Notes under the pieces: generated by a model
What the model saw: only the letters and a program-made list of their open reading frames with translations
What the model was told of the DNA's origin: nothing
Database searches by the model: none
Made by a program: the position numbers and the translations under genes
Assembly: GCA_036172245.1 (NCBI GenBank)
Contig: JAYWIR010000028.1
Coordinates: 2,046,001-2,110,000 of the forward strand
Reading direction: 5' to 3'
Length of the DNA stretch: 64,000 bases
Source: Raillietiella orientalis
Taxonomy: Eukaryota
In this document: piece by piece, positions 5,127 to 62,200 of the stretch
Layout of the letters: each line of letters opens with the position of its first letter
How positions within the stretch are numbered: the first letter of the stretch is position 1

Positions 5127-7419
5127 AAATGTTGGTTCCACTTTCCACATGCAAGAATTCATGTTTCTTTCTGTATCAGAGCAAATATAGTTGGCATCCA
5201 ATAAGGGAACTTCTCAAGCCACGTATAGAGCAAATGCATATTAGCAACTTCTCATACCTTTATTTGCAATTGATTCCTCTGTTCTTTCTGAAGTGCACAA
5301 CTATCTCATCATAATTTTTCAAGATGAAAAATTGAAAAATTTCAAGATGAAATTTTTCAATACTTGCAAATTTGCAAAATTTTTCTTCCAAAATCACATC
5401 TCCAAGGTATTTGGATTTTACAAGGTTCTCCTTGTTTATTTATCAGTGTATATAGTTTGTCACCATTAAATCCAATTATGCAGTACGAGATGACTATAAT
5501 TCATGTTTTTCCTTTTAGTGTTTCCAATTTGTTTATGTTAGTTTGCATAGTGCTACTGTTGGAGTGTGATCCTTAACATAGAAGACAGGTTTAGCGGATT
5601 GAAAATAAATACTTGCCCTTTTGCCAAATTGTAATGCACAATTGTGTTAAAATCTCTGTTCTATGCAGATTAGTGTGAATCCATCATAGATAAGAATAAA
5701 GAATTTTCCAATGAAAACTGCGACCTGGTCTCACTGTTTATTGCCCTAGAAATTTTTTTTTATTACTAAGTACGTTTTTCAGAATCCCGGTTCTAACTTT
5801 TAGGATGGCTGTATCATTCCAAATTGTGATCTGTTACTATCGTTAGCACTTGTATGTGCATGTATACAGCGAAAGCTGTATGCATTCGATTGAATTCGAA
5901 AGTAATGGTGGTTAAATTTGAAATGTCAACTGTGCTCCAGCATCTTGCTCAAAAAAACCTTTTCGAGGATAAGTTATGCTCGTTGGAATTCTGCTATCAT
6001 AACGTTTTGGATAGCAGTTATTAGAAATAGTAGCCGCCAGAAGCATTCGCCTTTTTTTCATCCTTAGAAAAAAGGAAGAAACAGCATGGCTGGAAAGCAT
6101 TAAGAAGATCACAGCATGAACACGGAAATTAAATGCAATATGCCAAAGTATCCCTAATGGGACAATTGTACAGTAGACCCCGTACAATGCATATTTGTGC
6201 AACTTTAAAAGTTGCAACGCCTCGTACAAAACGGTGAACCCTGTCCGTGCAACGCTTTAGATAAACTGCAATTTTGTGGTATCGTGAATAAAATAACAAG
6301 ATTTCTCAACAACGGGGCTGATAGGGTTGAAACTATAGATTGTGTGCATTGAATAAAAATCAACAGAACTCCGAAAGCTTTTCTTAACTCTAAATGAAAC
6401 TCTGTTTTAAAGCGAAACAATAAATATTTTACTATAATAATGTTCAAAATACATTTTATGTTTTACAAATACTATCACATTATCCATGCCAGAGGGTCAG
6501 TGTGACAGGGAGGGGGGAGAGGACGCATCTCTTGCATTACACGGGGGGTCTACCGTACGTACATTTCTTACAAATACGTCGGAGTTCTTAAGACCCGTCT
6601 TTGAATGAACAACTTTTTCTTCAGCGGCTTCGTCCAGCGTACGAAAACCTCCAGATACTTTTGTCATTTGATTTTATTTACTCACTGTAATGACATTCCC
6701 ATCATGCGAATCGAGTCGGTAATCCAAAGATTTAAGAAGCAAATCCATTTTTGCCTATTCATAACGAATGCAACCTGAATAATTAAAGTATTAGATGCAC
6801 ACAAGCTCTCAGCTAGGTACTTGAGGTAAACAAAAGCAAATATTCTAAAGCTTAATCGGGTTTTGTGAAGATATGGTATCACTGCATTCATACTAATTAT
6901 TTTTGGTTAAGCCTCTTCTCTCGAATCTTTCGTGATTATTCACTCCTCATAATGGAGGAATTCACGCATCCTTCTTTGTGCTAATTTCAGAACTATTCCA
7001 GATTAACTCCGGCTTTAAATGGGAAATTTCCTCTTTTATCCCTAACACGCATTGTATTTTCTGTACACTGTATTTGTTGATGTTTTACAAAACACTATCA
7101 TGTGTCGTTGTATGGTATATTTCAGCTTCTATACATCATTTTAGTCCATTGACACTTTATTCCTGATTTATGCTTGAAAGTAATACTTGTACAAAAGAGC
7201 AGCACTTGAATAAGCAAGCAGAAGCGAAGGGTAAAAAAAAAATTTTTTTTTTTTTAAATGTAATCTTCATTAAGCAGCTTTAAACGAAAGGAAAAAGTAA
7301 ACAATCCTAGTGTTCTTGCGTTCCTATTATGAATATTATTTATTTTCATTATATTTTTATTTGTTCACCTTCATTCGGCACATTAAGAACCTTAGGTGCC
7401 ATTCGGCATTAAAAAATTG

Positions 7420-8197
7420 GAACAAGTACGCGTGGTCCAAGGTAAACAAACAAAATCTACGCCGCATCATAAGGGAACAAGATAAAGACATCATTGCCCT
7501 CCGAGAAGCTGCTCATCGCTAAGGGGCTGACACACTCAGCCTGTTGCCGATAGGGACGATGCTCTGGAGAAGTGACCTACCACCGGACACCCAGGACAAC
7601 CTCCTGGTACTCTATCATGGAAGAATCCTGAGCGGGTCCAGGATGAAATACTTCACAGGAGCAAGAGAAGACGAGGACTGCAAAACGTGTGGGGATGTGG
7701 ACACAAGACTGCATGTCTTGACCTGCCCCACAATACATCCAGACTGTCAGACTCTGAAAAGGGTCAGAGGGCTGCAGAACTATTCGCCGACGGAAGTCCT
7801 GGCCAAGATGTTTCCAGGAACCAGTAACGTCCCTTGTTACAATCCCATGGTTAGGACGACCGTTGCCCTGCTTATTACGGCCATCCTAGTCAGATGGTGG
7901 AAGATGATGACCGGTGGAACGGCCGTATCTCATATGGAAATCCCGAAGGGGATTATCCGAAAAGAGATCGGCATACGGAACTGTAGCGGAGTGCCAGCAT
8001 GGGCATGCCGATATATCCTGAAAAGGATTGGGGACAACGTCCAAACACTCCCCAGTGCAGAACCTTAGTGCAGTGACTCCTCGAAGTAAACTTCAATAAA
8101 AAAATAATAATGAACTTTGTTCGGAGTGGAATGAATGAGTTTGTGGAGTGAATGCAAAAAGAAATAAAATTACCCCACCCTAGTGGGATTGGGGAAG
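7420..8197 (+). mobile_element. 5'-truncated L1/Tx1-like non-LTR retrotransposon (ORF2 C-terminal zinc-binding region plus 3' end)
   Basis: Translates SDLPPDTQDNLLVLYHGRILSGSR...CKTCGDVDTRLHVLTCP...YNPMV...IRKEIGIRNC, homologous to 13270-13740. Flanked by a perfect 15-bp direct repeat GGCATTAAAAAATTG (7405-7419 and 8198-8212). Confidence 0.9.
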
Positions 8198-9074
8198 GGC
8201 ATTAAAAAATTGTGTCTGCTTTTTTCCCTTCTTGCCTCCGCATACGGAATCTCAACTGCTCTGCGACAGCGAGTTTATTTGTGAAAACGAAGAGAAGAAA
8301 ACGTACAAAGATCCAACACAAGCCTCCTACACTTGAAAACAAAACTGCCAAAAAAATAAAGCACTCGACCCAACGCAATCCAGATGGTATGTTATGTTTC
8401 ACATACTGGCTGGCTTAATGGCAGTCATAACTAATCATGCAATAAACTTATCTATGAAAATGTACATCGAGAACTGAACCCTTCATTTCATATATAAGTC
8501 CAATTATTAGATGTGTACTTTGTATTAGATGTTCTATAAAAAGCCAAATTGTGTTTTGTGAGTTGGTACAGATGTTATCTCACTGCACTTTTCCTATTTA
8601 CAAATTTTTAATTCAGTTGTCATTTCAATGGTTTTTAATATGTACTTTGCGATCAGCAAAACATAATTTGCATCCATCATGAATTCCTAATGCCTGCAAA
8701 AGATCAACAACTAAATTATGAAGTCTTTGGACTAAATCTACAAAGAAATTTTCACATAATCAAATGTCTTCGGAATATCAAAAATACATTTTCTTATTTA
8801 TTCATCACACGATTGTATAGGAAGTTCAAGCAATTGTCAGGTGATAAGTAATTTGATGGTCACTGTGCCAACATGCAACAAAAGGTGTACCATAGCAATG
8901 CCGATAATTAGTAATAGAACATTCTAGTATTAGTGTCTGAGTTGAAAAACAATATTTTTCCGAGCAACTGTATGGAAATTCTTATGCTGAATTCAGTATA
9001 TATTCTTGAAATTTCATCATTTTAATCTTGTCATAATCAATTATTTGCAAATGTATCCAGACAGCACGCTTACC

Positions 9075-9150
9075 ATACTTCGAGGCGATCTTGGTCACCA
9101 CTCGGAAGCATAATTTTTGGGCTGGGAGACTGCGTTCGCGCGGACTCCTG
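9075..9150 (+). ncRNA. U1-like snRNA 3' fragment (SL3, Sm site, SL4) at the 5' end of the retroelement; not a full gene
   Basis: CGA-GGCGAT-cttg-GTCACC-ac-TCG hairpin (9081-9104) with U1 SL3 architecture; Sm site AATTTTTGG (9112-9120); GGGAGACTGCG-TTCG-CGCGGACTCCT stem-loop (9124-9149) matching U1 SL4 (GACUGCGUUCGCGC); ends in CCTG like U1. SL1 and SL2 are absent. Confidence 0.75.
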
Positions 9151-9243
9151 CGAAAGTTTTTGAAAAAAGAGTGTTTTCGAGCGTGTGGAGCGTGAAGTGT
9201 TTTTCCACGGACGAACAGTGAACCTCCCCCGGCCACCCCGAGT

Positions 9244-10389
9244 GTGCAGGACATTCCCCGAATGGACTCGCCCCCCCAGGGGAAGATGGAGGCGATGGGA
9301 CGTCTCCACGACGAGGGAGGTAAAGGCGCCCGCGTCAGCGGAAACGGCGCGAGCACCCCGCGTGGCATCGGCGTGGCGGCAGCAGCGGCGGCCCCATCTC
9401 ATACGTCGAACGCAGGTTCGGCTAAATTAGGAAGTTCTCCCGGGGTGCCCCCGGCCAAAGGAACAATTCCGGCAGCACCGGAAGTATTCGTGCTTGACCA
9501 GGAGGATCTACCGCTTCTCACGGTGGGGCCGGAGGTCAAGCCTGTTGTTTTTAAAACAGGATCGCTGAGGATAGCAAACTCGAAGGACATCTCTACATCG
9601 CCCTTCACCAGAGGAACGTGGACTTCGACGTCGTCAAGGCGATCATCCCGAGCGCAACCGGCTTCACGATATACACCTCGTGCGAGCCGCTGATGGAAGC
9701 GCTGATCGAGCATGGTCTTTCCATCAACGGCAGGGTATTCCGCGGGATGGGGAAGTCTCCACGACGACAGTCTTCCTGAAAGAGATCGACTTTAACACCA
9801 CGAGGCGGACAGTCCAGTTTCTCTCCAATATGGAGAGGTAATCTATATGGAGCTCGGGCGCGCTGCTCGATGTTCCCATTGAACATCTGAAGTGGCCCCC
9901 GGTGCTTATGAACACTCCCACCCTCCCCTTAAAATGGCAGGAGTCGGCTCTCCTGTTGCAGCACTGGGGACTCCCCTGCAACGCCCGCCGACACTACTGG
10001 GTCTGGGGAGCGGTGAACCCAATTGTGTTAGGTGTGGGGAACGGGAGTCCCTCCTCCACCTCCTGGTGGATTGTGTTGCCCTTCGGCCCCTTTGGTTACG
10101 CTTTGCCGCGGCCATCCGAATCCCCTGCGGTAACCCTAGGGACGCTTTAAAAGCCCTCTTCGTTGCCGACGCCCTTCGGCCTGCGGCCTCGTTAGCAGCC
10201 CTGTGCTGCCTTCGCGGGATCGTCGCCGCTTGGAGCAAGGTTGCAGGAGGACCCCGCGATAAGGGTGCCATCCAGGGCGCCGCCCAATTCCTGAGGAGGG
10301 CGTCGCGATAGCCCCACCAGGATCCGCGAATACAGGAGGAGCTTGCCGACATCCTGCGAAGGATGCAACGGCCCCAGCAGCAACAGTGA
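9244..10389 (+). pseudogene. Disrupted ORF1-like protein: low-complexity N-terminus, RRM-like segment, fused zf-RVT-like C-terminal domain
   Basis: Across frameshifts it reads DFDVVKAIIPSATGFTIYTSCEPLMEALIEHGLSINGRVF..TTTVFLKEIDFN (Tx1/ZCCHC3-type RRM pattern), then LPLKWQESALLLQHWGLPCNARR..PNCVRCGERESLLHLLVDCVALRPLW (C-x2-C..H-x4-C). Internal stops are present. Confidence 0.6.
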
Positions 10390-10596
10390 TCCCTTCCCGT
10401 ACCCTCCCACTTTTTCTTTTCTTTTTGTTTAGTTTTTTTGTTTTTCCCCCTTTCCCCTGCTGCCGAGGTCGACCGCGCCGGTCTGCGCACCGGTAGCCCT
10501 GCAAGCTGATACTTTCTAGGGCGTGGCTGGACTACTGGTCCAGTCACAGTTTAGATAAGTTTATTTGAAAAAATAAACGTCCGGGCGCAATCGGGT
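10388..10596 (+). other. Conserved T-rich, multi-hairpin non-coding spacer (3'-end-like element) of the ORF1 module
   Basis: GATCCC(T/G)TCCC start, pyrimidine tract, CGGTCTGCG motif, hairpins GTGGCTGGAC/GTCCAGTCAC and GTTTATTT-GAAA-AAATAAAC (10559-10578), then a CCGG..TCGG hairpin. Recognisable in six other places in the window. Confidence 0.7.
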
Positions 10597-10606
10597 TTCA
10601 ATCTAG

Positions 10607-13600
10607 TTGGAACGACGACCGGACGCCCAGCTGTTCCTGGGCGCGGGCCAGAAAAGGACCAAAGGCGTGGCGATTCTCGTGAAAAACGAGATCGCACACA
10701 CCATTCTGGAAACCTTTTCACCTTGGCCGGGCCGCATCGTCGGATTACACATGTCCTGGTCCGGAAACGTTCATCTGTTCCTGGTGAACGTGTACGGTCT
10801 GCACCGAGGCAAACATCGCTGCGCAGAGGCCGTACAGGCTCTGCTATGCAGCAAGGTCTCGGCAAAGGACATCGTAATCGTCGTGGGTGACTTCATCTTG
10901 GACAACATCACCCAGTCCAAGGATGCACGGGGAAGAACGGCCTATCGGCGGCTGTCGGACGAGTTCGGCCTCCAATGGCTAACCGCGAGCAGCAAGCCGA
11001 TCGACCATGTCCTGTCCAGGGAGGACATCGCGAATCGTTTGCAAGGCTTCCGAGAGGCTCCATCTGTACTCTCGGATCATCCCTAGCTGCGATTCACGTT
11101 GAAAACGGAAAACCCCCGTAGGAAGGAAGGCGCGCGGGCTGCATTAGTATGCATGCCCGCATGGTTCGAGACGCATCCCTGTCACCAGGATTTGACCGAG
11201 GCGATCCTGCGGAATACCACCATACGCAGGGTCGCCGACTGGGACAGTTGAAGCGGACAATCCATTTATTCAGTAACATGTAGTTCGGCGACAGGCAGAT
11301 GAGGGTGTAAGCGTACCGGGAGCTCGAACAGCAACAAAATCTCTCGCTCTCGAAATACTGGCCACAGTACGAGAGTTGGTACGTGTTCAAGATCGTCAAA
11401 GGGGAAGTTGGAGTGCTGGAAAGAAGGAACATCGCCAGCGATGGACGCAGACCGGTTGGACCGGCACGCAGACGAAGTCAGGCATACGTCCGAAGGAATC
11501 GCGGAGGCCTTCCACCATCATTACGCCTCTCACTTCCGACGGCGTCGTCTGTGCCCGACGGAACAAGAGAACATCCTGCTTTACCTGCATCCGCGTGTGA
11601 AACGGGAACAGCAGCAGAAGATAGAAGAAGAGATCTCACCAGAGGAAATCAAGATTGAGTTCGCTGGACTGCGCAAGGATGTGGAGGCAGGTCACGACAG
11701 TGTTTCCATCACGCACTATCAGCGGTACCTGCACGCCTACCTTCGCCTGTTCCACGAGCTCACAATCGCCATCCAGGAAGAAGGAAGACTCCCAGCATCG
11801 TTCCACGAGGGAAGGGTGAAACTGCTGCCGAAGGGGGGCCACCTGTTGGAAGTCACCCAATGGTGGCCGATCACCATCCTCAAGACGGATGCCAAGTGGC
11901 TGGCCAAGATCTGGGCCAACCGCTTAAGCATGGCCATGTCATCCGTCGTGTCTCCTACGCAAACATGCGCGGTGCCCGGACGATGCATGTCTGCGAACGT
12001 GAAGTGTGCCTTGGCCACCATCGGTTATTGCCGATATATAGGCGAAGACCTGGTGCTAGGGCTCACTGATATGGAGAAGGCATTCGACACCGTGGACCAC
12101 CAGATGCTGTTGGAGATCTTGAGGAAACTGGGCTTCCCAAGCTTCTTCATGCACTACCTGGAATGGACCCTCGAGGAGCAAGTCGTGAAGATCAGGATGA
12201 ACGGGCTGGAAACAGCAGCAATTCGGATAGAAAAAGGGTTTCACCAAGGCGACGCCTTGAGTCCGATGCTGTTCGTGCTCTACATGGAGGCGGTGTCCGC
12301 GATAGTAGATCGCGGCAGCCGTCTAAAAGGAATCCGAATCGACGGCCAGCAGCTGACCCACCTGGCGTATGCGTACGATCTGTTGTTCTTCCTTAAGGAC
12401 GAACGAGATCAAGAAGCATTCCTAGGTGTGATCAAGCAGATAGAGAAAGGTCTAGGACTCAAGATCAACACCCAGAAGAGCTACCTGCTGCCAATCGGGA
12501 TCTTGGAACTCTCCTCACTGCAAGAGGCCGGATTCCGAGCAGCAGAAACCGTGAGATACTTGGGATTCTGCCTTGGCGACGAGACTGCGTCACGCTGCCT
12601 ATGGCAGGAGATCCTGGGTAAGGTCACCGATGAAGCCACCAAGTACATCCGCGTCGACTTCAACATGAAGCGGAGGGCCGCCTTGTGGAATGGAGTTCTC
12701 CTTCCCAAGGTTCTCTACGGAGCGGCCTTCTGCCGAATGGACAAGAAAACAAAGGCGGAGCTGGAGAGGCTACAGCGGAAGATCCTAAGGCGGAAATATA
12801 GACCCAGGGTTCGGCTGACACTGGACAATGGATTCAGATCGACCCCACATGGAAGCGCAAGCAGGCACTGCTGAGAACCCAAGGGTTCAAAATCGTGCCT
12901 AGGAGCAGCGAAATATGGGACGAAGAACTGGCCATGATGATACCTCACTTTATCCCGATCCGACGGGAGACAGTGAACTGGTTAAACCAAAGGCCAAGAC
13001 AAGATTCGACGGTGCGAGCAGTTCGCTACTAGTGCCAACCGGCAACCAACTGCGACTGCATCGCCTGACCACGATCTTGCGGGGTTGCTTCAACCATCGC
13101 ACCCTGGAATTTTGGAAAGAGCAGCCGCATGAGGCGTGGCTACTTATGACCAAAGCCAACATCAGGGTGGAAACCGCGAAGAAACACCAAGACCCTGATG
13201 CCCTCAACGCAGCCTCGAGCCGTTACGGTCCTGCACATGCGAATGTGCTGGCCGTAGGGGCTGCACTCATGAGTGACCTTCCCCCTGACACTCAGGACGA
13301 CCTGCTGTTGTTCTACAACGGAGGCATTCTGAGTGGTTCCAGACTGCGGCACTGGACCGGGAAATAGCAAGACGGATTCTGCATGGCGTGCGGAGAAGAG
13401 TGAACTCAACTCCAAGTACTCACCTGCCCCACGCTGCGACCAGACTGGAACGCGGTGAAGGCGGTGACGTGCCTGCAGAGGAAGACAGCAATCCAGATCC
13501 TGTCGGGATTGTTTCAGGGGACAGGAGTTGTTCCCCTGTACAACCCGATGGTGCTGACGACGCTGGCCCTCTTTGTCACTGCCATAGTGATAAGGAGGGC

Positions 13601-13770
13601 TAAGATGTACACCCAGCGACGACAAGTGCCGGCATGGGATATCCTCAGTGGCCTTGTACGGAAGGAAATCAGGATCAGGAGCTGCGGAAGGATCGCCGCC
13701 TGGACGTACCGGTACATCCTAATGAAGATGGACGAAGACACCCAGGCACAGAGGACGACCCCCCCTCCCC
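10607..13770 (+). pseudogene. ORF2 of L1/Tx1-like element: APE endonuclease, reverse transcriptase, C-terminal zinc finger; disrupted
   Basis: EN motifs KGVAILV, LVNVYG, GDF(I), IDHVL, SDH. RT motifs KLLPKGG, W(W)PITIL, DMEKAFDTVDH, GF(H)QGDALSPMLF, AYA(Y)DL, GLKINTQKS, RYLG. C-terminal CMACGEE..LTCP. Several stops and frameshifts; catalytic YADD reads YAYD (12368-12379). Confidence 0.93.
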
Positions 13771-16700
13771 TTAACCCCGAAAACAAAAGTGACAGAATAT
13801 TGAAAGTGGAGTGCAATTTAACTCTACAGACAAGAAACAGATGTGAAAATTGTAAAAGTGTATGACTAGAGTTTGTGGATTTTTGTTTCTTAAAATAAAT
13901 TCACCCCACCGCTTGTCGGACCTGGGGACAATACAGATAGCATGTTTAAATCTCATATGAATCCTAATAAAAGACACACTTTTTTTTTTTAATCAGATCT
14001 GCAACCTTTAAAATAAGGATGCAATTCATTTTCGCAGCTTTAGAAACATCTGTCTAATACCTAGAAATGGCTACTTTAAAAATATTTTCAGACATGAAAA
14101 TATTTTTCAGACTTACTGCCTCTGGATTTTATATTAGTATAGATAATATTTAAAATCGAGTAGGAGAATTAATATCTTACAATCCATTTTACTTCAGTGA
14201 ATCGAATGCATTCGAATCAAACACTCATATTCCGATTTTCTTGTAGCCTTTTAATAATAATTTAATAGCCTTTATCTTGTCCTATGTTCTTGAAATGTGT
14301 CACATACACACAAATATGGTGCAAACATACTGTAATTATGATGGTTTATAATACAAATAGCACAATATAATAAGTTTCTAGGAGAAAAACTGAGCTGATT
14401 TTTTTAGATGAAACATTTAATTTCAGAAATCAAGCCAGATATCTGATTTGGCAATGTCTGCATTCTGGCTAATAAGGTATACAAAATTGCAGTCTTAATC
14501 ATCAACTGAGTAGGTGTTCACACATATACTTTGAGCAACTTCCAATTGCTTTCTTTTAGATGAAAGGTATTAATAGGATCGACGTCTTCATTTGAAAACG
14601 ATGTGATCCATGAACATTAAAAATTTTAATCCACAAACAAGAATTCCTTGTTGATAGAAAAACTAAATCGAATACATGTTGAAACGGTACTTGAATTCTG
14701 TTCTATTATTTTGGACAAAGGCTGATGAATTGATAGACAGAATTCTACTGCGTTTCCAACATGAATGCTGGAGAGGTGGAAGCAAATTTTACATCATTCT
14801 GTGGAGATAGTGTTGCTACTTCTCACATAGCAGTATTCAAGAAGTCATTGTCATTAGTGATGATCAGTGTAGACGGAAAGTATTCGAGTGAGCAAGCATT
14901 TGAAATATTTTAGAATCGAATCGCCTTTAGAAAATGAATATCATGAGCTTCTTAATTTCCCCTTTATATCGTTGCGAGATCTTAAGAAAACACATCGGAG
15001 CAGTGCTAATAAGGAGAATCGTACTCAAACACACATTGGTAACGGCAAACATCGCGGAGGGTATAGCATAAAGGAAAAGAGCCATTAGGTGTGGCAATGT
15101 CCCGCTGGCAATGTAGCAGTATCTGCTCCTCAGAATCAGGAGCTCCATCCGAGAACGAAATAGAAGAAGCAGTGTAACTTCAAGAGCAAGATAAATGCGA
15201 CAGTGCATATGGAATGTTTGATGTTGTGAATGAAGCTTTCCTATTGCAAGTATTCTTATTGTAAATATTACATTAACCTTTGCTTTGATGTTTATGGATC
15301 AGGGAGTCTGAAAGAAATTCAATGGCATCTCAAGGTTAGTCAGATGGAGTAAAATTACTCAAAAAGTATATCTGCATGCACAAGTAGAGAATATCATCAC
15401 TTCGAGATAGAATAATCATCAAAGATCTTTCCGATGTCTGGTCTAATTGGATTACAGGTTTTCCACCTGCATGGTTGATTCCTGGACAAAAGTCTGCTAG
15501 AATGGACGCTTTTGGAATTTTGAATAAATAACTAAAGTGATTTAAAATTCCTTCGAATCACTTTACAAGAATTGCACCTTGAATTAGAGCTCATTTGTTT
15601 TGGAAACATCCAGCATTTATGCCTCTGCTTTGGGAAGTAGGGAGTCACTTTGACATGCTCCCTTCCCCAGAGTTCCTTCTCTGGAACCGACCTCAGTCTC
15701 TTACAAATGCCTATATTAATCCATCCGATCCTGTATTTAATTTGAAATGTGTCCGTTGTATCGCATACGACCGTTCATCCCATGCTCAGGTAATGCTCGT
15801 GAAAAAAAACTTCCTCTGTTCCTTCATTCCTTCAAGTACATAGAGTATTCACCTCTTGTATTACATAAAATATTTTTGGATATCAGTAATCGTTAACTAC
15901 TCTTGTTTTTCATTAGATTTATAATAATTACAAAAGAAACCCAGCCACCTAAGAAATCCCTTGAATTCTTTTGCCGACTCCAACGATTTCTTTGTTGGCG
16001 CTTTCAGTTTCATATTGATTTTTTGAAACATACACTTTAACTATATTTCGACAAATATGAAAATCTGTTGAACAATATTCTTTGGCAAATTAAGCAATCA
16101 TGTGCTGCTGTGAATAAATTATATATTGACCGTTAAAGCTGTTATTTGTAATCATATTACCCAATTTTGATACTTAAATCATCACATCTTACATTCTGCA
16201 TAGAAAACTGAGTTGAAAGATAAAATAATGCAAATTCTACGATCTTTTTATGTGCTATTTAAACAGATTTCGATTGCGGAATAAAACTACGATGCATACA
16301 TAAATTTTTTTAAAAAAAATGAGAAGGTGTTCTTGGTTTGTTGTCATTCAGTTTGTGACCCCATCTCTTTCATTTTGAATATATGTTTTATTATTCTGAA
16401 AGAGACAAATTCTGTCATTCGTAACGATTTCTCTAAGTATGCATCATAACGAAAAATGCTTCCGTTCTGTTCTTGTTTTGTCTTTTACAGAGAATTCTAT
16501 ACCCAACGAGCCTTTGTTTTCATGTCGAAATTCATTGAATCAATTAAACTCATTTCGATATTTCAAAATTTGGCAGTCAGATTTTCAAGATTCAATGAGA
16601 GCATTCCAAATCATGTCTTGCTTTTTTAGCTTCTATTGCATTACAGTTTTTCCTGAAACTGGCGGTTTTGTGGTGAAAAGTGGAGAAATAAATGTTAGTC

Positions 16701-17168: not shown

Positions 17169-19118
17169 ATGATGGAGATCGAATTCCGTAGCCTAGGCTT
17201 GGATGAAAGAATTTTGAAAGTAAGATTTAGCATGGCAAAACATTAATGAAATTTTAGGCGTTAGTTGACTTGAAATGGGAACGCCCCACCCTGATACAAA
17301 GCAAGTGTATTTCTTTGGCGCTTGAAGGAAAAGATGTATTTGCGAAAGCCAGAACTGGCAGTGGTAAAACGGGCGCTTATGTTATTCCTATTATTCAGAA
17401 AATACTTACAGCCAAAAAAGTTAGTTAAAAGCAAATGTGGCGTCTTGTTTTAATTTTGAAATAGTCAGTTTTTCAGCAAAGTATTTTTGCTTTGATCTTA
17501 GCCCCAACAAAAGAGTTATGCCAACAAATATGTAGGGATTTCAAGGATTTGGCCAAGTACTGTCGTAATGTGAACTGTGTGAATATTTCATCATTTGTAA
17601 GTGACTAATTTGGGCATTTCATAGTAAATGTTTTTGTAGGCAGATGTGGAAGCTCAAAAATTAGTTTTGAAAGAAACTCCAGATGTGATTATAGGTACAC
17701 CTAGTTGTTTGGTTAAGCAGATTCAGTTGAACCATATGCACATTCAGGATAATCTTCAGGTGTTTGTGGTAGATGAGGCCGATCTTATGTTTTCTTTCGG
17801 TTATAAGCAAGACACTGAAACTTTAGTACGGTGAGTGGTATATGTTTATGTTTAAAAACAACTTTTGGGTCCAGAGTGCTCCCAAAGAGTGTTCAGTGTC
17901 TGATGATGAGTGCAACATTGAGTAGTGATGCCAAACTGTTGAAGCATCTCTTATTGTATCAGCCTGTTATTCTTGATTTGCAAGAGCCTGCCCTCCCTCC
18001 ATCGAATCAGCTTCTCCATTATTTTATTAAAGTTGAGGAAGAAGATAAATATGTTTTAATATATGCATTACTAAAGCTCAATCTTATGCAAGGCAAATCC
18101 GTATTGTTTGTCTCTTCTGTGGATCGTTGCTACAAATTGCGACTTTTTTTGGAACAGTTTGGTCTAGCATCGTGTGTATGTCATGGTGAACTGCCAGCTT
18201 CCAGTCGTTACCACATTGTTCAACAGTTTAATCAAGGGCTATACAATTTGTTGATAGCTGCTGATAATCTTGGTCAGGAAACTAGTGTGATAAGTGGATC
18301 GACATCTCGACAAACAGATACTGAATCTGGTTTATCTCGAGGAATTGATTTCCAATATGTTGCCAATATTATCAATTTTGATTTCCCTGGGGATCTGGAT
18401 GTATATATCCACCGTGCAGGTCGCACAGCAAGAGGGAACAATGAAGTAAGTTTGGCCACAGGTGAAAACACAATTTTTGTAGGGTGTTGTCCTGTCTCTC
18501 ATTAGATTAAAAGACCTCAGTGCTTTTGATGAGATAGAAAAGGGACTGCGTGATCTTTATGAGCAGCCCCATACATCAGTGTTCCGGTAACTTGGAGTGA
18601 TTCACTTCATCGATAATCAGTTTCAGTGCCTTCAAGTTCCAAATGCAAGAAGTAGAAGGATTCCGTTATCGAGCAAAGGATGCATACAGAGCTGTTACAC
18701 GTATTGCTATTCGAGAAGCTAGAATTCGAGAAATCCGCAAAGAACTTCTCAATTCCAAGAAACTCAAGGTTGATAGGGCCTTTATCTACTAGTTGCTTTA
18801 ATCCCTTTTTTTTTTTAGGTACATTTTGAAGACCATCCTGAAGACTTAGCAGCCTTGCGCCATGACCTAGAGCTTCATACAGTGCGCCATCAGGCTCATC
18901 TCAAGGATGTTCCTGGTTATTTAATTCCCAACAGTTTGAAGAGATTAGTCAAATACCAGACCAAGAAGCAGCGTAAAAAAAAAGCAACTAAAAAGCAGCA
19001 AAACAGCAGATCAAAAGCACATCAGAAGATGATGGTATGGTATATACAGCTTGTTGATTTCTCTACTTTTTTTCAGAGAAAAAAAGCTGACCCGTTGTGT
19101 AGTCTCATGTTGGACTGA
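17169..19118 (+). CDS. DDX56: DEAD-box RNA helicase DDX56/Dbp9; 9 exons 17169-17219, 17258-17419, 17465-17596, 17640-17830, 17875-18445, 18483-18586, 18627-18768, 18819-19034, 19077-19118 (about 536 aa)
   Basis: Q motif (WERPTLIQ), [42 protein letters not shown], and the family-specific tail [37 protein letters not shown]...DPL. All introns are GT..AG, 37-50 nt, and frame-consistent. Confidence 0.96.
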
Positions 19119-19154
19119 AGTTTTTGCTCCTGTTTTTTCAAAATGAACTGATCT

Positions 19155-21055
19155 TTATTGGCGGTTAACCAAAAAATGACTGCACAGAGCAAGGAGAGGA
19201 GCAGCTGTGGGAACTCCTGGAAAAGGGCCTGAAGAAGCTGCAATATCCATATGGGAGAACTTTATAGGTTTGTTGCTGTCTAGTCCATGCTGATCCAAGC
19301 CAGAAGCTAATATGAGAAAGGCTGCAGGATACTGGTGTCCTCGCGGAGTTCTGCTGGAAGGCACATTGTTGCTCTGCAATATATCCTCGTACTCGGACTT
19401 TCCTGAAATACAAGTCAAGTTGGGTTGGAAGGGGCATACTAGTGTTACCCTTAATAAGTTCGTAATCTTCTCGTCTAATGGTGGATAATTCTATAGGATC
19501 ACCAATTTGGTCCCCTGCCTTTTGTAAGATGCTTCCAAAGTTTTCTGAACAGGCAGGACCATTGTTCAGAAGAATACTATATCCTACTCCTACTGCTAAG
19601 CGAGCATGCCCAGTCAGTGTAGCCACAGTTATGATATGAGGATTTGGACTAGTGCAAGCAATTTCTTTGAACTAGTTTCAAAGTATGCTTTCGTATTGAG
19701 TCAGTATTATGCTCACCATGCATACGAGGTCAGCCATAGCCATGCGGCCTTCAGCATCCGTGTTGCCTACTCTTACTCTTACTCCTGCTCTTGATGTCAC
19801 CAGCTCATCAGCTACATAAGCTTCAGCAGATACACAATTTCTTACTACAGCTAAGCCTCCAGTGACTTTGATGCCTTGAGGTTTTAGTGTGGATAATATC
19901 TACAAATCTTGTGACTTTGGTTTTTATAAGAACTGCTGTTACCTTAAAGAAACCGACTACAGCTGCTGCACCACATTTATCTCGATGCATTCCAGCCATA
20001 ATACCTCCAGCTTTAATATCATGACCTCCAGTATCATATGTTACACCTTTACCCACCAAAAACAAACTGGTATCTATAGGGCCTTCCCCATGATATTCTA
20101 ATAGTATGATCCGTCCTTTGTGCCGTTTTGCTGGTGAAACATCCTCAAATCTTGTTTCCGAATGAGAATGCTTACCTTCTGATCCTCTGTTAACTCGTTG
20201 AAATAAGGGAAATTCCTTGTTCAGTTGGTGAGCATCTGAGATAATTCGTACGTGGATGTTTGAATGAGCAAACACTGATGACACGTACTTCTCAAATTCT
20301 TCAGGGCACATCCTTTCTGGGTCGGAACCCGCAAGGTCACGGCATACCCATCTGTTCACATTGCAAAATTCTTTGTTACTCCTTTTTACCTGCCACTTTC
20401 TAAGACAAGAGCTTGTTGCAAAATATCTTTGTGGGCACCCCATACACCCAAAACATCCACTTTGGGTGTGTGTGTTTGTTTTATTTCTCTAACTTCCAGA
20501 GGCTAACAAGAAATAGTACGACAACTTTTTGGAAACACTTACTGTATAGAGGGCATGCAAGGCTCCTAACAAAGAAACTAATTGAGCATTTGGGTACTGC
20601 TTGTTTGGAAGAGACACCAATAAAGGTTTTCTACATCCTGCTTCTAGGGCTCTGATTATTCCTATAGTAAACTACATAAACCCAAATTACCTTTTGGTGC
20701 CAAGGCATGCAGCATCCATGTATCGTCGTATGTCATCATAATCACGACTTAACAGCCCTGTAGGTGCAAAAATAATCCGACGTCCAGCAATGTCTTGATT
20801 TGCAGGGGCAATGCCACCTCTTTCTTTAAAGGATGCATCAATCTGTCGGAAATAAAAAGTTGCTAATTCTACAAATGCCATTAGTTAAATTACCTCAAAC
20901 ATTGTCTGTAAATGCGGCTTAAGTAACGAAAGTTCGGTTGGTACAGACTGAGTTGGTGCAGCAACGTAAACAACTCCATCATAATTTTCAGCATCCAGTC
21001 CCTGGCAATCATTCACCTCGTATTGTGAAAGCTTACTGAATTTCTCCAAACTCAT
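19155..21055 (-). CDS. M17 cytosol leucyl aminopeptidase (W07G4.4-like); 9 exons 21055-20894, 20842-20691, 20651-20543, 20502-20390, 20351-20176, 20130-19943, 19899-19717, 19671-19449, 19402-19155 (about 517 aa)
   Basis: Motifs GSDPERM, LVGKGVTYDTGG.DIK, MHRDKCGAA, NTDAEGRM, ATLTGH, HMDIA. Introns are GT..AG, 38-51 nt, and frame-consistent. Confidence 0.95.
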
Positions 21056-41750: not shown

Positions 41751-42859
41751 GCGAAAGAAGAGAGATCGCCGAGGATGCCATTGGCTGTGATTATAGAAAC
41801 TCGCAGAACCATCCGTCTCTCTGCGTGAATCGGAGGAATTTATTAGATCCCAGGCTAACGCGAAGGACGTCTAAGCGAGTCACGCCGAAAACAATTCTTT
41901 CGCCGGTCGGGAAGGCGGCGGTGGAGAGGCGTCCGTCGGAGGAAATTGAAATCTTACCGAGGCAGACTGCTCGTGACACGACCTACTTTTTGCGTCCACC
42001 CTCAAACGCTGTTTGTTTATTCAGCGATATTCACACAAATTATCTCGCGTTTCCATGATGTGCATGTGTTTCGTTTTCAGTAACTCACGACTCTTTAAGA
42101 AGACAAAGGAAGAATCGAGATCTCAGCATCCTAGAGGGAGAATGTCATCGAGGCAAAGACTTCAAGGGAGCTTGCGGACGGGATCTGATTACTTAGGCGT
42201 AAGAGAAGTGGGCCCGGCGACTGCTGACGCTTTCGGTCGACATCCCTCGTCAAGGAGACGGACTCTGGCCAGCTGAGGAAGGAACTGACAGATCCACGGT
42301 CTCAGCAAGGAAAGCCATCTCGGAAAACGGCGGTTGGTCCAGGCGAAAGCGGCCGAAAGTTGCATCTCGGAAAGTTGGGGACTGCGCGTGGGATACGAGG
42401 GCGCGAAATTTTTTCCCATCGCTTCCTCGTCGCCTGGGAAGGGCTTGTTTGCGGAGGATGCTCGAGGGTAGGGGTAGGTGTTCCGTGGCGAGGCGAGAAA
42501 GGATGTTGTTCGAAGAGTCTGACGCCGGGGTTTGAACCCGCGGACTCGCCGCCTTGACATCGAGAGGTTTCGCCATGATGCCGTCGGGCCTGCTCGGTTG
42601 AAATCCGGTATTTTGAGGACCCAAAGGTGCCTCGCCTCCTGGCGGTGTTCCCACCACCAGAGTTGTGGTTCGGGGGTGCCTTAGGCATTGCGACCAAAGG
42701 GTGTACCTGCTCTCCTAGAAACTGGACGAAGGTGTCATAGTGTTGAGAATGCACAAGTGGTTCAGAGATCTCCAGCTCTTTAAGGACATCGCCGTTCTCG
42801 GAACCTCAGTCTTTCACTCGTGCTGATGCCGAGTGCTCGGACTGACGCCCGTATTCCTG

Positions 42860-43629: not shown

Positions 43630-44430
43630 CTGAACTACGCGTCAGCTGGCTGACGCGGCAACAGCAAGAACCGTCTCCAAAGGACTGGAACGTTGGGGCA
43701 AACTCTTTTCCATTCGGTCCGGAGAGTTGGAACTGCCCCCCGTATTTGTGGACAGAAAACTGCTTCCCCTCAAGTGACAGCAATTGGCGCTCTTGGTGCT
43801 GCACTGGTGTCTTCCGTGCAATGCGCGCCGGTACCACTGGACGAGGGGAAAAGCATCTCCGAACTGTGCCAGGTGTGGAGAGAAGGAGACCTTCCCCCAC
43901 CTCATAGTGCTTTCCGAGACTTATGCGAACGTTCCTTTGCGTCCCTTCCTCACCCCGTGGACGATTCCAGAGACTGTTTGAGGTCCCTCTTCGTGCGGGA
44001 CGCCATGACGTCCGCAGACGCAATCGCAGCGCTATGCTGCTTGCGCGTCGTCGTAGCGGCTTAGTGCAACGCCGAGAGAGGACGGAGCGACGGGGGCTGT
44101 CCTGCACGCCATCTGCTTCCTGCAGATACCTTTGAGGTGGCCCCACCTGGAAAGAGAGGAGCTCGCCAGCATCCTTTAACGGATGCAGAGGCCTCACCCA
44201 CCACGAAATGTGATCCTTTCCCTTCCCCCCAACTGATCTTTTTTTTTTGTTAGTTTTTATTGTTTGTTATAGTTTGTTTCTTTTTTTCTAGTTTTGTTTT
44301 ATCCCTTTTCCCCTTCGTGAACGTGATGGATCTCGATGGCCTCCCCTTAGTCTTAGTGTAATAATTGGGATCGGTAAGCCTTTTGGTTTCATTGATCCCC
44401 CTAAGAGAAATAGACGCGCCGGCTCACTCC
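43630..44430 (+). mobile_element. ORF1-type zinc-finger module plus spacer
   Basis: QLADAA..KGLERWGKLF..LLPLK*QQLALLVLHWCLPCNARRYHW..SPNCARCGEKETFPHL..SLFVRDAMT..AIAALCCLRVVVAA, then GATCCTTTCCC and a T-tract. Confidence 0.8.
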
Positions 44431-52204: not shown

Positions 52205-53700
52205 ACGCTCTGGGTTCGAACCCGGTTACTCCGGCGCGTTTGTTTTGAAAAAACAAACAAGCAAACAAAATACACTACAAAGAGGAGGGGAAGAAGGGTA
52301 TCCCCTCAAAAAAAAAGAAATGCTAAAAAAAAAAAAAAAAAAAAAAAAAGAGTTTTTCCGGGATAACCACCGGCACGCAGGCAGGCTTCTGAAAAGTAGA
52401 GAACGAAGGAAAGGTACAGTGAATAAATAAAAACAGACGAAAAGGTGGTGACAGGGGTCTTTGATATAAGACATTCCTTCCTCTTTATAAGCATCTGTGG
52501 ATGCTCACGATTTCCCTGGCGACTTCTTATGGATGATGAGGCCACCTTGCTGCATTCCTCATGGGGACTGCTGCTGTACTGGTGGTCTCTCTTCGCCGCG
52601 AAAACTTGATTCCAACACATGGCGGACTGTCACTATGGAGCGGATGCAACAGAGTGTTGCGATCACAGTGCCCTTCTTCTTCTGTGAAGGATCGTCGCAG
52701 TAAGTCCATTGCAATGTCCTGCGGTCGACGGAGCGCCGAAGAGAGTCTCCGCCACAAGTCCTCGAGGGCACTGCAGTTCAACGAAAGGTGCGGGATCGAT
52801 TCCATCTTTCCGCACCTTGAACAGTTCGGGGAGGTGACTCCCCGGAAAGAGGGTGTTCCTGCTGATTGCACTGGAGTCCCGAGCGCAGAAGCAGCAGAAC
52901 GTCCCGTTCCCATCGGAGCGGGAACACTGAGGCGTCCATGCACAGGGGAGGAACCACGAGTTCTGTGGGGGGCACGCCAAGCAGGTCACTCCGTCGGAGG
53001 AGTCCCTTCTCCCGGAAACGAGGAGTGGCGGCGTCCACCGACGACGCTCTGGGTGGGGGGAGGTGGGAGCGCGACGCTTTCCTGAAAGAGGTTCCGGGAA
53101 GCTCGTCCGAGACGAACTTTCCCAGAGAAAAGCGGATCTTCTCCGTTTTCTTCCCCGAACGGGTTGCATCGTTGCTCAAATGGCGAGTGGTTCCGAGACC
53201 CGGTGCCATCAACCTGGATGCGCATCCGAGGGAGTTTGGAGGACTTTCGCGAGATTATTCGGAGATCAGCGCCATCGCCGGGGTCCGTCTTCATCGAAAA
53301 TATCGCTACCGATGTTCGCGTCTTCGTCTTTGGGTCCCCAAAATTACATCGTGGTAGTAAATTTGTAGCTTTATTACGGGAGATTAGCATAAAGCAATTT
53401 TCTGGGCTCGTTTTAATTAGGGAAGGAACCGTCAGGAAAGAGGCTGCTTTGGAGCGTACGAGCGCTGAAAGCCAAATGAAGCGGTCAAGAGCCGAAAAGA
53501 ACGCAGCAGCAGCAGCAGCGCACGCTGAGGAGTGCAAGATTGCGCTGCTGGGCAGAGGGGATGTTTCAGAGCTGCCCTCTGCGCCCAGCGCCCCTCTAGA
53601 AGACCCAGAGGTGCGGACCAGGCCCGTTCGCGGCGGAACGCAACGCAGGCGAAACGGGAGATCGACTGGGGAGAGGGAAGGAGGAGGAGGGTGGATATTC
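52205..53700 (-). mobile_element. ORF1 (RRM/knuckle relic) + zinc-finger module + spacer, no RT
   Basis: KLPRMRIQVDG..QRCNPFG, then VDAAT..KGLLRRSDLLGV..FPLRWERDVLLLLRSGLQCN..SPNCSRCGKMESIPHLSLNCSALEDLWRR..IATLCCIRSIVT, then a spacer with the GTTTGTTTT/AAAACAAAC hairpin (52238-52258). Confidence 0.75.
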
Positions 53701-58249: not shown

Positions 58250-59830
58250 AGGGGCAACCCGACGAGTGAGCCAGAGCCTCTGCGGTGTGGCCATCTCTGC
58301 TTTTCGGCTGGGATCGAAGAGGACCCTAGAGGAGCCCCTCAGCCAATCTGGCGGAGTGTCTGGTGATCCCGCCGCGTGCGTCGACATGGGCGAAATCCTC
58401 CCGCTAGGGATGCCGGCATCCTGACACTGAAGAGAATCGGGCTGCGAGTGCTCAGCTCCGAATGGACGGGCACTTTGTGCCAAGCTGTGGACTTACCCGT
58501 TGTGTGCGCCTGCACGCATCATCCTGCGGAGATGCGCCGGCAGAGGAGGATTGCTCCCGCTAATGCCGAGCGCCCGTTGCAGGATGTGGAGATTTGGTTC
58601 CCCCCTGAGGCAACTTGCCTCGCTAGTTGAAGCCCAACCGCGAATTCCCTGTCGCCCAACGAACTACAATGCTTGGGTGGCAGGAGACTGCTGAGTCCTG
58701 GGTTGCATTCCACGAAATGCGCCCTCAAGTTCTTTACCCTCTGCGGCATCTGCTGCCACGATCTTTGGAAGTGGTGATGCAGGACGTGGAGAAGGGTCGA
58801 TGCTAACCGCCACACTTCTTGCAGCAGCCCTCTCTCCCCTCGGGGCAAGAGAAGACAGGGAGATGGGAGGTTTTTCTTCACCACCGCGGGAAGGACAAAA
58901 CTCCTTGCTGGTTGGAAAACGTGCAAGCTGGTGGATGCTGCCACTCTGCCGTGCTTTGGTGACGGAACTCCTTCGGTGGAGCAAACTTTTGAGTGTTGCA
59001 CCCGAAAAACTTTGGTCCCTCCACATTGTTTGGACGCTTCCCTGTTCCCACACTCCTGGAAACAGGCCGTGCTGCTCTTCCACCACTGGGAATTCCAGTG
59101 CAACGAGCGGAGGCACCGCTTTCCGCAGGGGCTGCATCCCCGAACTGCGCCAAGTGCGGGTTGGCGGAGTCGATGCCATCGAACCTGCTTTTGGATTGCG
59201 GTGTCCTCCAGGAACTGTGGCGGAGACTGGCAGCAGTACTCCTGCATCAAGAGGACACCGTCCGAGATGTGTTGCGACGGTTCTTTGCGCCGGGTGCACT
59301 CTCGATGATTTCAGCTATCGGTTGCGTCCGTGCCATCGTCACCGCCCTCCATGTGCTCGGGATCACCAAGCAGAAAAGGGAGGTCACCAGGATGGCAGCC
59401 GCGTACATCAGAACGGCTTACAGGTGGTCTCACCTGGAACAAGTGGTAAAGGAGAAGATCGACAGCATCCAGCGTCGGTTGGTGAATAGTTAAGAACGGC
59501 GGACACCTGTGATCCTTGTCCCTTGCCTCCCTTGTTTTTTTTTTCTCATTCTTCATCTCCGTTGGCTCCGTGATTTCCTCGGCGGTTTTTATTTTGATCC
59601 CGGTGCGCTAGGAGCGAATCCAAAGATTCCTGACCCATCCTACCCAATTTATTTTATTTTATTTTTCATTGTCCCCTTATTTTTCCCCCGTTCCGGATTT
59701 TCCATTATCCCGGACTGCGTGTTGGTGGACTCTTCTCTTGAACTTTTGTTGTCTCGGCTGGGAACTGGTTTATTCTTTCTTGTAAAATGAACGTTTCGGT
59801 GTGATCGGGTGACAAAAATCCTCCCAGGAC
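58250..59830 (+). mobile_element. ORF1 relic + zinc-finger module + duplicated spacer start, no RT
   Basis: TLEEPLSQSGGV..DMGEILPLG, then KLVDAA..ELLRWSKLLSV..AVLLFHHWEFQCNERR..SPNCAKCGLAESMPSNLLLDCGVLQELWRR..AIGCVRAIVT..RWSHLEQ*, then spacer motifs at 59511, 59624, 59711 and 59768-59810. Confidence 0.78.
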
Positions 59831-59904
59831 CTTTTCCGTCCCGAAAGAAGCGTTCCTTTGAGCGGGCAATTGACGGGAAAAAACACTCCCGTTCTCCGTT
59901 ATTG

Positions 59905-62200
59905 CCACCCGGTCAAGCCGGGGCGTTTATTAGAAAGAAACTGATAACGTTGTGGACGAACCACGCTGGTTGACGGTAGACCGGCGAGGTTCACCTCGGC
60001 AGTGGAGGAAAGAGGGAAAAAATAAAATAAAACTTGATAAAACAAATACAAAAAAAAAAAACGTTGGAGGGCTTGGAAGGGATCGCTGCCCTTTGGAGGG
60101 AGTCCACTGCATCCTTTCCAGGGTACCGGCAAGGTGCTTCCTGATAGCACGCAGGTGGGGTCATCTTTCTGCTATCCGCAGAAATGGAAGCGCGAACGCG
60201 ATGGTGTCCATCTCATACGGTCCTCTTTCAGAGTCTCCCCAGGCTGCCGCAATCCCGCAAATGCCACAAAGAGCTGCTAGCGCATCTCACACGGAAAAGA
60301 GCTTGAAAATGCCCCTAACGTTTGCCAACCAGGGTTCGTGGGGTCGTGCCAAAACGTTCCCACAGGGGCTGGAGGTAACACAGTCCATAAACGGGTGTGC
60401 GAGAGATTCCCGTTTTCCGCACCTGCGATAGTTTGGGCTCGAACTCCCCAGTTTCGAATGGTGTCAGAGGGAGTTGCAGGGAAGACCCCGGTGCAACAGT
60501 AGAAGTGCCGACTCTTGCTACTTCAGGGAGAGGGTGCCATTATTCTTGAACTCTGGAGACCACTCCAGGTCTTCCTTAAGAATACCAAGCAGTTCATCCC
60601 GGCGTTCAAGTCCACGTAAAAGGGCACTTGAGATCTCAGCGTCGGTCAGCTGCACCATGGTTCATCCAATAGTCAACCTCCGTCTGTCCGCGATCTTGCA
60701 GGAGACTCCCCATCCCGCATTTGGCCACTGCCCGTTGCCTTTCCTAGGGAGGGCAGTGTTGCGGCGGGGTGGGTCAGTTCCGGCCAGTCCTGGCGATCCA
60801 CCCGGTGCTCCTTCCTCTTCTTCGGAAGGAAGTCAGAAGAGATGATGAGGATAAAAGAGCGAACGGGTTGAAGCGGGAAAACAATTCTGACCCGAAGCGC
60901 GGAGCTTCACTTCCTGTGGTTGAAGCTTCGTGAGCTTCCGGGAGACTGCATGGGCCGCGAAACTGCTTGTGGGATGAAATGCACTCCTCTTTCCATTTTA
61001 GAAGCTGCAATCTGCTGATCCGAAACAGATTAAAGTTTCTGGGGCTTTTCCCCGTTTCACAAGTGATATGCCGAAGGATGCAACCGATGACCAGACGATC
61101 TTTCACCATCCCTGCTGTGCAACTGCCCTCAGTTTTTCCAGTTTCGGTCGGTGGTCCAGCCCGAGATTTCAGAAGACCTCCATGGAGAAGCGCTTGCCGG
61201 AGCACGCTATTTCCTTCCCGTCGCCGTTACTTACACCGCATAGGGACCCTCAGTTCTTTTAGGACTTCGTCGTTCGCCGGATCCTACGATCCCGGTGCTG
61301 CTGCTGTCGCTGCTCAGGACACTGACGGAGACGGCGCTGATGGCGCTGCTGCTACCTCCAGTGGTGCTGTCGAAAGCAGCGGTACGCTGGATGGCACAGC
61401 AGGGACCACCTTAGGTGAGAAAGCGTAAAAGTCCACCTTGCAGGGTAAGGACTGGCCACCTGAACGGATGGCCAGCTACAAGATTCACGGAGGCAATTCG
61501 CACGACCCCCGTTTCGCATTCCTCCGACCATCGCGTTAACGAGACGTGGACCAGGAGCTGACAATGATTCGATGGCCAAGGGATCTTGAAGAACAGGACG
61601 ATCTATCTGAAGGACGCTGGCACTCGCTTGCACTTGAAATGGGAGGTCAAACTTCTGCAACTTTTCCTCGGCCATGCTCCTTCCAGTTCTCCACAAGAAG
61701 ATTCGTAAGAGGTCGTGGACGCTTACTGCCATCGCTTTCCCGTCGACTTGGAGCATCGGATGCGATCTAGAGTACCAGATTCAGTTACCATTCCGAATCT
61801 TTTCCTGGAATGGGTCGACTGAAGACCACTCTTGCGTGATCCTCCTAATCGGTGCTACCAGTTCGTCCTGACTCTCCGGTGATCCGTTTATTTCGTTCCT
61901 GATGCGGTGGTTGAAAGACTCTTCCTGCAGAGTACTCCTCTTCTGCACATGCAAGTGACGGGAGCAGGAGCCATCCCTAGAAAAAATGCAGATGCCGAGC
62001 AAAGGTGGTAACGATCTTAAACGCAGGACTAGCGCCATTTTGTTTTTTGAAGACTGCTTCTCAGCATATGCAACGCAGTCGTTGAAAGCGAGCATCTTCC
62101 GATCCGCGCTCTCAGCATACCAGTTCATCGCCAGATTTTCTAACAAAAAAGATCTGAGTGTCCTGATTCGTTTCCTGGAAGCGGAGGGACTCTGTCAACG
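59905..62200 (-). mobile_element. Gag-like + RRM + zinc-finger module + spacer, no RT; tail-to-tail with 58250-59830
   Basis: FLLENLAMNWYAE (Gag-like), LQVDGKAMAVSVHDLLRIFL (RRM), QLTDAEISSALLRGLERRDELLGILKEDLEW..LK*QESALLLLHRGLPCN..PNYRRCGKRESLAHPFMDC. Its spacer CTGCCGAGGTGAACCTCGCCGGTCT closely matches 10460-10484. Confidence 0.75.

Follow-up and report, generated by a model that had tools for sequence, protein, structure and literature searches.

A decayed U1-derived head at the 5' end of a composite L1-like insertion in an invertebrate genome

Insertions in which a small nuclear RNA (snRNA) is fused to a LINE have been described as products of template switching, tripartite forms included, in several LINE clades (PMC4476161, PMC13174262). 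They comprise U6/L1 chimeras, the rarer combinations of U1-U5 with L1, and tripartite insertions in human, mouse and Magnaporthe (PMC4476161, PMC13174262, PMC2104539); the small RNA lies in sense and 5' of the LINE, its own 3' terminus is at the junction, several RNAs can follow each other head-to-tail, and one duplication surrounds the whole. A second described system is SINEU of crocodilians, non-autonomous retroelements of the short SINE type that form multi-copy families with common heads (Kojima 2015, PMC4494074). U1 and U2 sequence has repeatedly been added to SINEU 5' ends by template switching, the snRNA part of SINEU-3 is internally deleted, and the heads as described there contain no promoter (PMC4494074), the promoters of snRNA genes being located upstream (PMC4494074, PMC5493778). 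Further points of comparison are provided by LINE 5' transduction, exemplified by RAP1GDS1/L1PA2 with read-through from an upstream promoter (PMC13174262), and by Keno, a Tx1 element of the L1 superfamily that sits inside U2 genes with snRNA sequence on both sides (PMC4494074).

The insertion analyzed here lies in a window of 64,000 nucleotides, by which we mean the whole stretch of DNA studied. It resembles the known snRNA-LINE chimeras in carrying the small RNA in sense and 5' of a LINE, with the 3' terminus of that RNA at the junction (U1 similarity ends at 9150 and an ORF1 begins at 9262 on the same strand), and in joining several RNAs head-to-tail. The one duplication that may bracket the whole is a candidate with 14 of 18 identical positions, which ~13% of random pairs equal. 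It differs from them in its putative acceptor, U1, for which Doucet et al. saw no template-switch chimera in human, in its invertebrate host, in a 78-nt internal deletion of the U1 part and in a 3'-box-like, AT-rich stretch after it. With SINEU it shares a U1/U2-type 5' end on a non-autonomous retroelement, the internal deletion (as in SINEU-3) and the lack of a promoter inside the head, whereas the 64-kb window contains only one copy, the body of which bears ORFs and derives by deletion from a LINE instead of being a short SINE. A likeness to the RAP1GDS1/L1PA2 type of transduction would exist if 9151-9180 were U1 flank; no report of a transduction starting from an snRNA gene was found in the open-access main texts searched. 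As in the case of Keno, an L1-superfamily element is associated with spliceosomal snRNA sequence, but no snRNA match is found 3' of the insertion (13931 onward), nor does the locus represent an snRNA gene.

At its left the window consists of AT-rich eukaryotic DNA of an invertebrate host, with 29-43% GC per kb in the first 9 kb, versus 52-58% GC in a block reaching from ~9.07 to ~13.93 kb. This block is a composite dead L1-like element, in which an internally deleted element (A) is joined to a 5'-truncated element (B), with the U1 head at its 5' extremity, in the sense orientation (Table 1). Element A spans ~9151-10598 and has a 111-nt leader. Its ORF1 remnant belongs to no Pfam family and has no homologue among proteins of 78-251 amino acids, and its endonuclease and reverse-transcriptase domains are deleted. 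Five diverged relatives of its C-terminus, with amino-acid identities of 31-58%, are found elsewhere in the window. A terminates in AATAAACG and a subsequent CCGG...CCGGG hairpin, and since the in-window relatives have this terminal motif in common, A retains its native 3' end at the junction with B. In element B, Pfam recognizes RVT_1 (E 9.8e-24) as well as Exo_endo_phos (E 6.8e-7). Among solved structures, human LINE-1 ORF2p is the closest to B (E 5.6e-38, versus 1.2e-18 for R2), while the database relatives of its reverse transcriptase are distant (19 proteins, at most 30% identity) and an atlas search led to generic reverse-transcriptase clusters only. Neither the 5' part of A nor the U1 head occurs a second time within the 64-kb window.

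Table 1. Position of the U1-like head, the two retroelements and the candidate duplications in the window.
Feature	Positions	Strand	Remarks
Candidate left target-site duplication, ATCCAGACAGCACGCTTA	9055..9072	+	last 4-7 bases overlap the U1-like start
U1 5' block, best on U1 nt 4-34	9069..9099	+	22/31 identical, ungapped
U1 3' block, U1 nt ~113-164	9100..9150	+	Rfam U1 27.5 and 26.4 bits; nhmmer 24.4 bits, E 5.2e-7
Parts of the U1 3' block: helix-H 3' strand, Sm site (9112-9120), SL4 (9124-9149), mature 3' end (9150)	within 9100..9150	+	
U1 downstream flank plus 5' UTR of A, or 5' UTR of A alone	9151..9261	+	first 30 nt AT-rich
3'-box-like motif, GTTTTTGAAAAAAGA	9156..9170	+	begins 6 nt past the U1 3' end
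Element A, ORF1 remnant	9262..9840	+	ATG at 9262, frameshift near 9590, then stops (three-frame translation)
Element A, ORF2 C-terminal remnant (CX2C...HX4C) and 3' UTR	9892..10598	+	weak zf-RVT, E 0.034
Element B, 5'-truncated L1-like non-LTR element	10599..13930	+	adjoins the end of A directly; part of APE endonuclease, reverse transcriptase, C-terminal region, 3' UTR
Candidate right target-site duplication, ATACAGATAGCATGTTTA	13931..13948	+	14/18 identical to 9055-9072

Termini of the type found at the end of A, AATAAACG plus hairpin and no poly(A), are present at 10540-10600 and in relatives at ~44380-44420 and 59640-59700 on the plus strand and at 52300-52340 and 59900-59940 on the minus strand, and a similar AATAAA-plus-hairpin arrangement characterizes the end of B (13890-13930). 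The conserved 3' terminus may be the 3' recognition signal of a "stringent" LINE group. A B-like fragment is located 1 kb upstream of the insertion (7361-8068, plus strand), with 41% amino-acid identity to the C-terminal region of B and 68.7% DNA identity over 179 aligned columns. The right 38 kb of the window (26000-64000; GC 45-61%) are densely occupied by diverged non-LTR fragments in both orientations. DNA repeats within the window are mostly old, eight of ten pairs being 67-87% identical, while two short repeat pairs reach 92-96% identity (one at 27.6-27.9 kb, the other formed by 26.8-27.2 and 28.9-29.3 kb). The nearest host gene encodes a DDX56-like DEAD-box helicase (~17.1-18.5 kb, plus strand, short introns), an exon of which shows at most ~60% identity to proteins from diverse invertebrates; the top-scoring DDX56 match was not accepted as closest relative, its score being due to an internal triplication and not to closeness. 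On this evidence the host is an invertebrate animal to which nothing in the protein collection is closely related. An M17 leucyl-aminopeptidase-like gene, likewise with short introns, was read by eye from the list of open reading frames on the minus strand at 19100-20500.

With regard to the head itself, the region 9100-9150 is U1-derived as judged from its sequence, with a score far below that of a real gene. In agreement with the original prediction, direct reading of the sequence revealed the Sm site AATTTTTGG and a UUCG-capped SL4 with arms 9124-9134 and 9139-9149 around a TTCG loop (9135-9138), in which ten of 11 positions are paired, with two G-U pairs and A9129/A9144 as sole mismatch. 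The head thus has in common with U1 (RF00003) the Sm site, the UUCG-capped SL4 and the 3' terminus, in the order expected for U1, that is, an Sm site and then SL4 ending at the 3' terminus. The prediction had also pointed to a resemblance to U11 and proposed that the two be told apart by covariance models. The Rfam U1 model matches 9075-9150 with 27.5 bits, corresponding to E 2.7e-5 in a 351-nt scan and to E 0.005 over the 64-kb window, both strands and 4227 families, whereas two local covariance-model scans of the head region gave no U11 match at E<=10; by these models the head is U1, not U11. The window-wide Rfam scan returned seven matches with E<=1, the other six of which are miRNA families with E values of 0.13-0.99.

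The score of 27.5 bits compares with an Rfam gathering score of 69.5, a level at which there is no U1 match in the window, and with 113-164 bits for the real U1 genes fetched for comparison (20 of 20 representatives checked by Rfam were full-length). When 9075-9089 are left out of the scan, 26.4 bits remain over model positions 102-166. The Rfam alignment skips 103 model positions, and U1 similarity ends at 9150 precisely with model position 166 of 166. The comparison set was obtained by scanning metagenome contigs for the Sm-site-to-SL4-loop signature, which resulted in 118 loci, 71 with a U1 5' motif upstream, 22 cut too short and 25 without the motif, and 58 distinct full-length non-vertebrate U1 sequences were gained from them. 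An independent U1 profile built from 52 full-length genes finds a single good match in the window (9100-9149, U1 nt 113-163, 24.4 bits, E 5.2e-7), the next-best having E 0.34; this second U1-like site (42327-42413) was rejected as there is no Rfam U1 match there. The closest fetched U1, at locus L024, is identical to the 3' block of the window at 43 of 49 positions, and within SL4 26 of 28 positions are identical to a real U1. An exact 25-mer of SL4 had no match in metagenome, prokaryote-genome and viral contig collections.

Several properties of a working U1 are missing from the head. The 9-nt 5' splice-site-pairing sequence ACUUACCUG is absent, with only CTTACC (9069-9074) or ATACTT (9075-9080) in its place, the four-way junction with SL1, SL2 and SL3 does not exist, and U1 nt ~35-112 are without counterpart. 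In minimum folding energy, 9073-9172 does not stand out from shuffled sequences (z 0.21; 113 of 200 equally stable), and that a 9-nt Sm site should have stayed intact at such decay is not surprising. Among the metagenome loci, U1 adjoins another small-RNA gene in several instances (U2 in L034, U5 in L015, 5S rRNA in L036, a tRNA in L011, a second U1 in L041). Four loci (L010, L084, L101, L118) display the U1-type Sm site, SL4 and an AT-rich flank and lack a U1 5' motif in the preceding 150 nt; possible interpretations are truncated pseudogenes of U1 or chimeras in other organisms.

The original prediction saw in the head the 3' half of a U1-like snRNA. This holds insofar as the sequence is U1-derived up to the mature 3' end, but it is incomplete in that 9069-9099 form a second, colinear block similar to the 5' end and SL1 of U1. 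The aligned U1 nt 4-34 consist of CUUACC from the 5' splice-site-pairing region and, next to it, the SL1 5' arm and loop; bases 9066-9068 may correspond to U1 nt 1-3. When the alignment is anchored to the U1 5' end, 22 of 33 positions match at 9066-9098, a result equalled by two of 1500 random 84-nt windows; an unanchored local alignment is equalled by 7/400 random windows at a strict and by 18/400 at a moderate gap cost. A gapped alignment of 9040-9099 to U1 with nearly free gaps gave no signal and was discarded (175 of 400 random windows equal). Two rival placements exist. Rfam puts ATACTT (9075-9080), a hexamer with 37 occurrences in the window when both strands are counted, on U1 nt 1-6, and a gapped alignment assigns CTTACCAT and ACTTCG to SL2 strings. 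Whichever of the three alignments is taken, the U1-derived sequence starts at 9075 or earlier, and in two of them at 9069 or earlier, inside the proposed left duplication.

The two blocks abut at 9099/9100 and are therefore most simply read as a U1 from which nt 35-112 have been deleted; the head accordingly looks like U1 with a 78-nt internal deletion. According to the same alignments, the beginning of the U1 part probably coincides with the native 5' end of U1 or lies at most 3 nt away from it. Two details of the original prediction have to be revised. A start of the head at 9073 is too late, the U1-like sequence beginning ~4-7 bases earlier and overlapping the end of the presumed left duplication, and the hairpin proposed as SL3-like (9078-9107), although it can be drawn, shows no homology to SL3, the covariance model aligning this arm at a posterior of 0.3-0.5 only. 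Upstream of the head, 13-25 nt before the U1-like start, the segment TTATTTGCAAATG (9041-9053) holds a 7/8 match to ATTTGCAT, an octamer known from vertebrate snRNA enhancers; in such AT-rich DNA the resemblance is probably due to chance.

The boundaries of the insertion may be marked by 9055-9072 and 13931-13948, which form the best local alignment between the flanks and are located at both GC-composition boundaries. The score of this pair is equalled by 279 of 2000 shuffles and by 259 of 2000 random host window pairs (~13%), and it is not significant alone.

As origin of the head we favor, with middling confidence, a switch of the reverse transcriptase to U1 RNA as template; read-through that started at a U1 gene takes second place. 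During target-primed reverse transcription, the enzyme would have copied the RNA of B part-way, jumped to the 3' end of A RNA, copied this to the A 5' end, and finally changed to the 3' terminus of a U1 snRNA, mature or nearly so, which it would have copied to the U1 5' end. U1 nt 35-112 would have been skipped during copying or lost later, the sequence from 9151 onward would be the AT-rich start of A's own 5' UTR, and its likeness to a 3' box would be a coincidence (~0.7%). We infer template switching, and a single event, from the arrangement of the parts. The stop of U1 similarity at 9150 is where the junction would be expected for a switch onto mature U1 RNA, and the probable start at the native U1 5' end would reflect run-off on a small RNA. 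The sense orientation of U1 at the 5' end, together with a sole candidate duplication that brackets U1, A and B, counts for template switching as well, and the head-to-tail joint of A and B with the 3' motif of A intact represents a second junction of the template-switch kind.

Other observations count against it. In the human data of Doucet et al. (PMC4476161), no U1/L1 template-switch chimera is recorded among 33 U1 copies, which argues that U1 is not a favored acceptor there. Furthermore, the duplication lacks significance, the 5' block can be aligned in more than one way, and for the internal deletion of U1 the template-switch model gives no explanation. The remaining two counterarguments, a motif one deviation away from the mammalian 3' box at a chance of ~7 in 1000 and a host-like GC content of 0.30 after the U1 end that fits carried-over genomic flank, stem from the sequence directly following U1 and at the same time support read-through.

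Read-through, or 5' transduction, is a possibility that we regard as less probable. It supposes that a source copy of A stood ~20-30 nt behind a U1 gene in the same orientation, that transcripts initiated at the U1 promoter or still farther upstream extended beyond the 3' box into A, and that the resulting U1-flank-element RNA was retrotransposed. Pol II is stated to transcribe beyond the 3' box by a few hundred bases, and the box to be ignored under a non-snRNA promoter (PMC5493778); the U1 part seems to begin at the U1 transcription start. The motif at 9156-9170 had been addressed as a 3' box in the original prediction, which had derived from it expression by read-through from the snRNA promoter. 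The mammalian 3'-box consensus is given as GTTTN0-3AAARNNAGA (PMC9006982) or, alternatively, as GTTYN0-3AARRYAGA (PMC5493778). The strict first form has no match in the whole window; with its NN shortened by one base there is exactly one, 9156-9170, versus 1.02 expected in the window. From the second form the motif departs by one substitution, bearing in mind that this consensus is mammalian and the host an invertebrate. Sites with at most one error relative to the first form number 34 in the window on both strands, so the chance that one starts within 25 nt after a given point is ~0.007.

The U1 genes available for comparison speak against reading the motif as a genuine box. None of the 58 distinct non-vertebrate U1 genes has a site with at most one error from either form in the first ~27 nt of flank, so that a U1 flank would not be expected to bear a mammalian-type box here. 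A strong common box was not apparent in the fetched U1 flanks, and a literature search for invertebrate 3' boxes found nothing. An invertebrate-type A-rich box, "AAAG", was considered, and with 14 of 47 flank clusters versus a background of 0.20 it proved too weak for use. The flank in the window is like none of the 115 comparable U1-like flanks from the 118 loci fetched, 421 of 500 random 50-mers doing equally well; the flank of L024 seemed similar by eye, a similarity without significance (731 of 3000 random 50-mers equal). The motif is a single deviation away from both mammalian forms, and the read-through deduced from it is possible but unsupported.

Base composition has a bearing on the same alternative. 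The GC content is 0.30 at 9151-9180, AT-rich like host DNA, versus 0.56 in the U1 part and 0.62 at 9181-9261. Equally AT-rich 30-nt windows are encountered 100 times among 4721 inside the insertion, nearly all in 3' UTRs, and AT-rich stretches at UTR ends are thus a property of these elements, too. As a sign of carried-over flank the stretch counts weakly, not being independent of the box-like motif. Short direct repeats in the 5' UTR (AGTGTTTT twice, GAGCGTG twice) were considered for assigning 9170 onward to the element and were found too short. Read-through finally requires an element at most ~30 nt away from a U1 gene, as well as a box of mammalian type in an invertebrate, and we continue to prefer template switching.

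An in-situ relic is improbable. In this case, 9066-9170 would be a resident U1 gene or pseudogene with its flank, just downstream of which a retroelement inserted, and U1 would be outside the insertion. The host-like composition of the flank after U1 would agree with this, as would the fact that the duplication placing U1 inside the insertion is not significant. On the other hand, no better duplication was found for other boundaries. For an insertion start at 9151-9210 none was detected, the best score being 14, from a match inside the 3' UTR of B. The shift from host to insertion GC moreover coincides with the start of U1, and a 78-nt internal deletion must be assumed in addition. That the region is not U1-derived and resembles U1 by chance is a reading of next to negligible probability, as the score well below the gathering level and the fold no more stable than shuffles are outweighed by the window-wide E of 0.005 over all Rfam, the independent profile match, the near-identity of SL4 and a match that ends at the last position of the model.

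A farther-reaching proposal is that module A is a propagating non-autonomous L1-derived family with a "mini-U1" head (5' end, Sm site, SL4) followed by U1-gene flank, the master copy of which would be located directly after a U1 gene and transcribed from its snRNA promoter, while an Sm core assembled on the retained Sm site and SL4 of its RNA would enable nuclear re-entry by snRNP import. We consider this unlikely, and the Sm-ring and import part of it, already raised in the original prediction, is speculative.

On the favored reading, the head has no promoter, no SL1-SL3 and no intact 5' splice-site-pairing sequence, the element behind it is dead, and nothing suggests a function; the U1 fragment is expected to be inert. 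In its present state the locus is a single decayed copy without sign of function.

As an snRNA-LINE chimera, the insertion belongs to a known kind, and what is new here is the host group and a U1 with an internal deletion. Such chimeras are traces of template switching by the reverse transcriptases of LINEs and are regarded as the route by which SINEs acquire their heads. With a U1-headed LINE derivative from an invertebrate, one case outside vertebrates and fungi would be gained, and at the same time a case for U1, a rare acceptor in human. If the head were found to be family-wide or accompanied by real U1 flank, it would bear on the question of how promoter-less snRNA heads such as those of SINEU get transcribed, and if the reading as a mini-U1 family were true, an invertebrate, LINE-sized counterpart of SINEU would be at hand, together with a proposed answer as to how such heads are transcribed.
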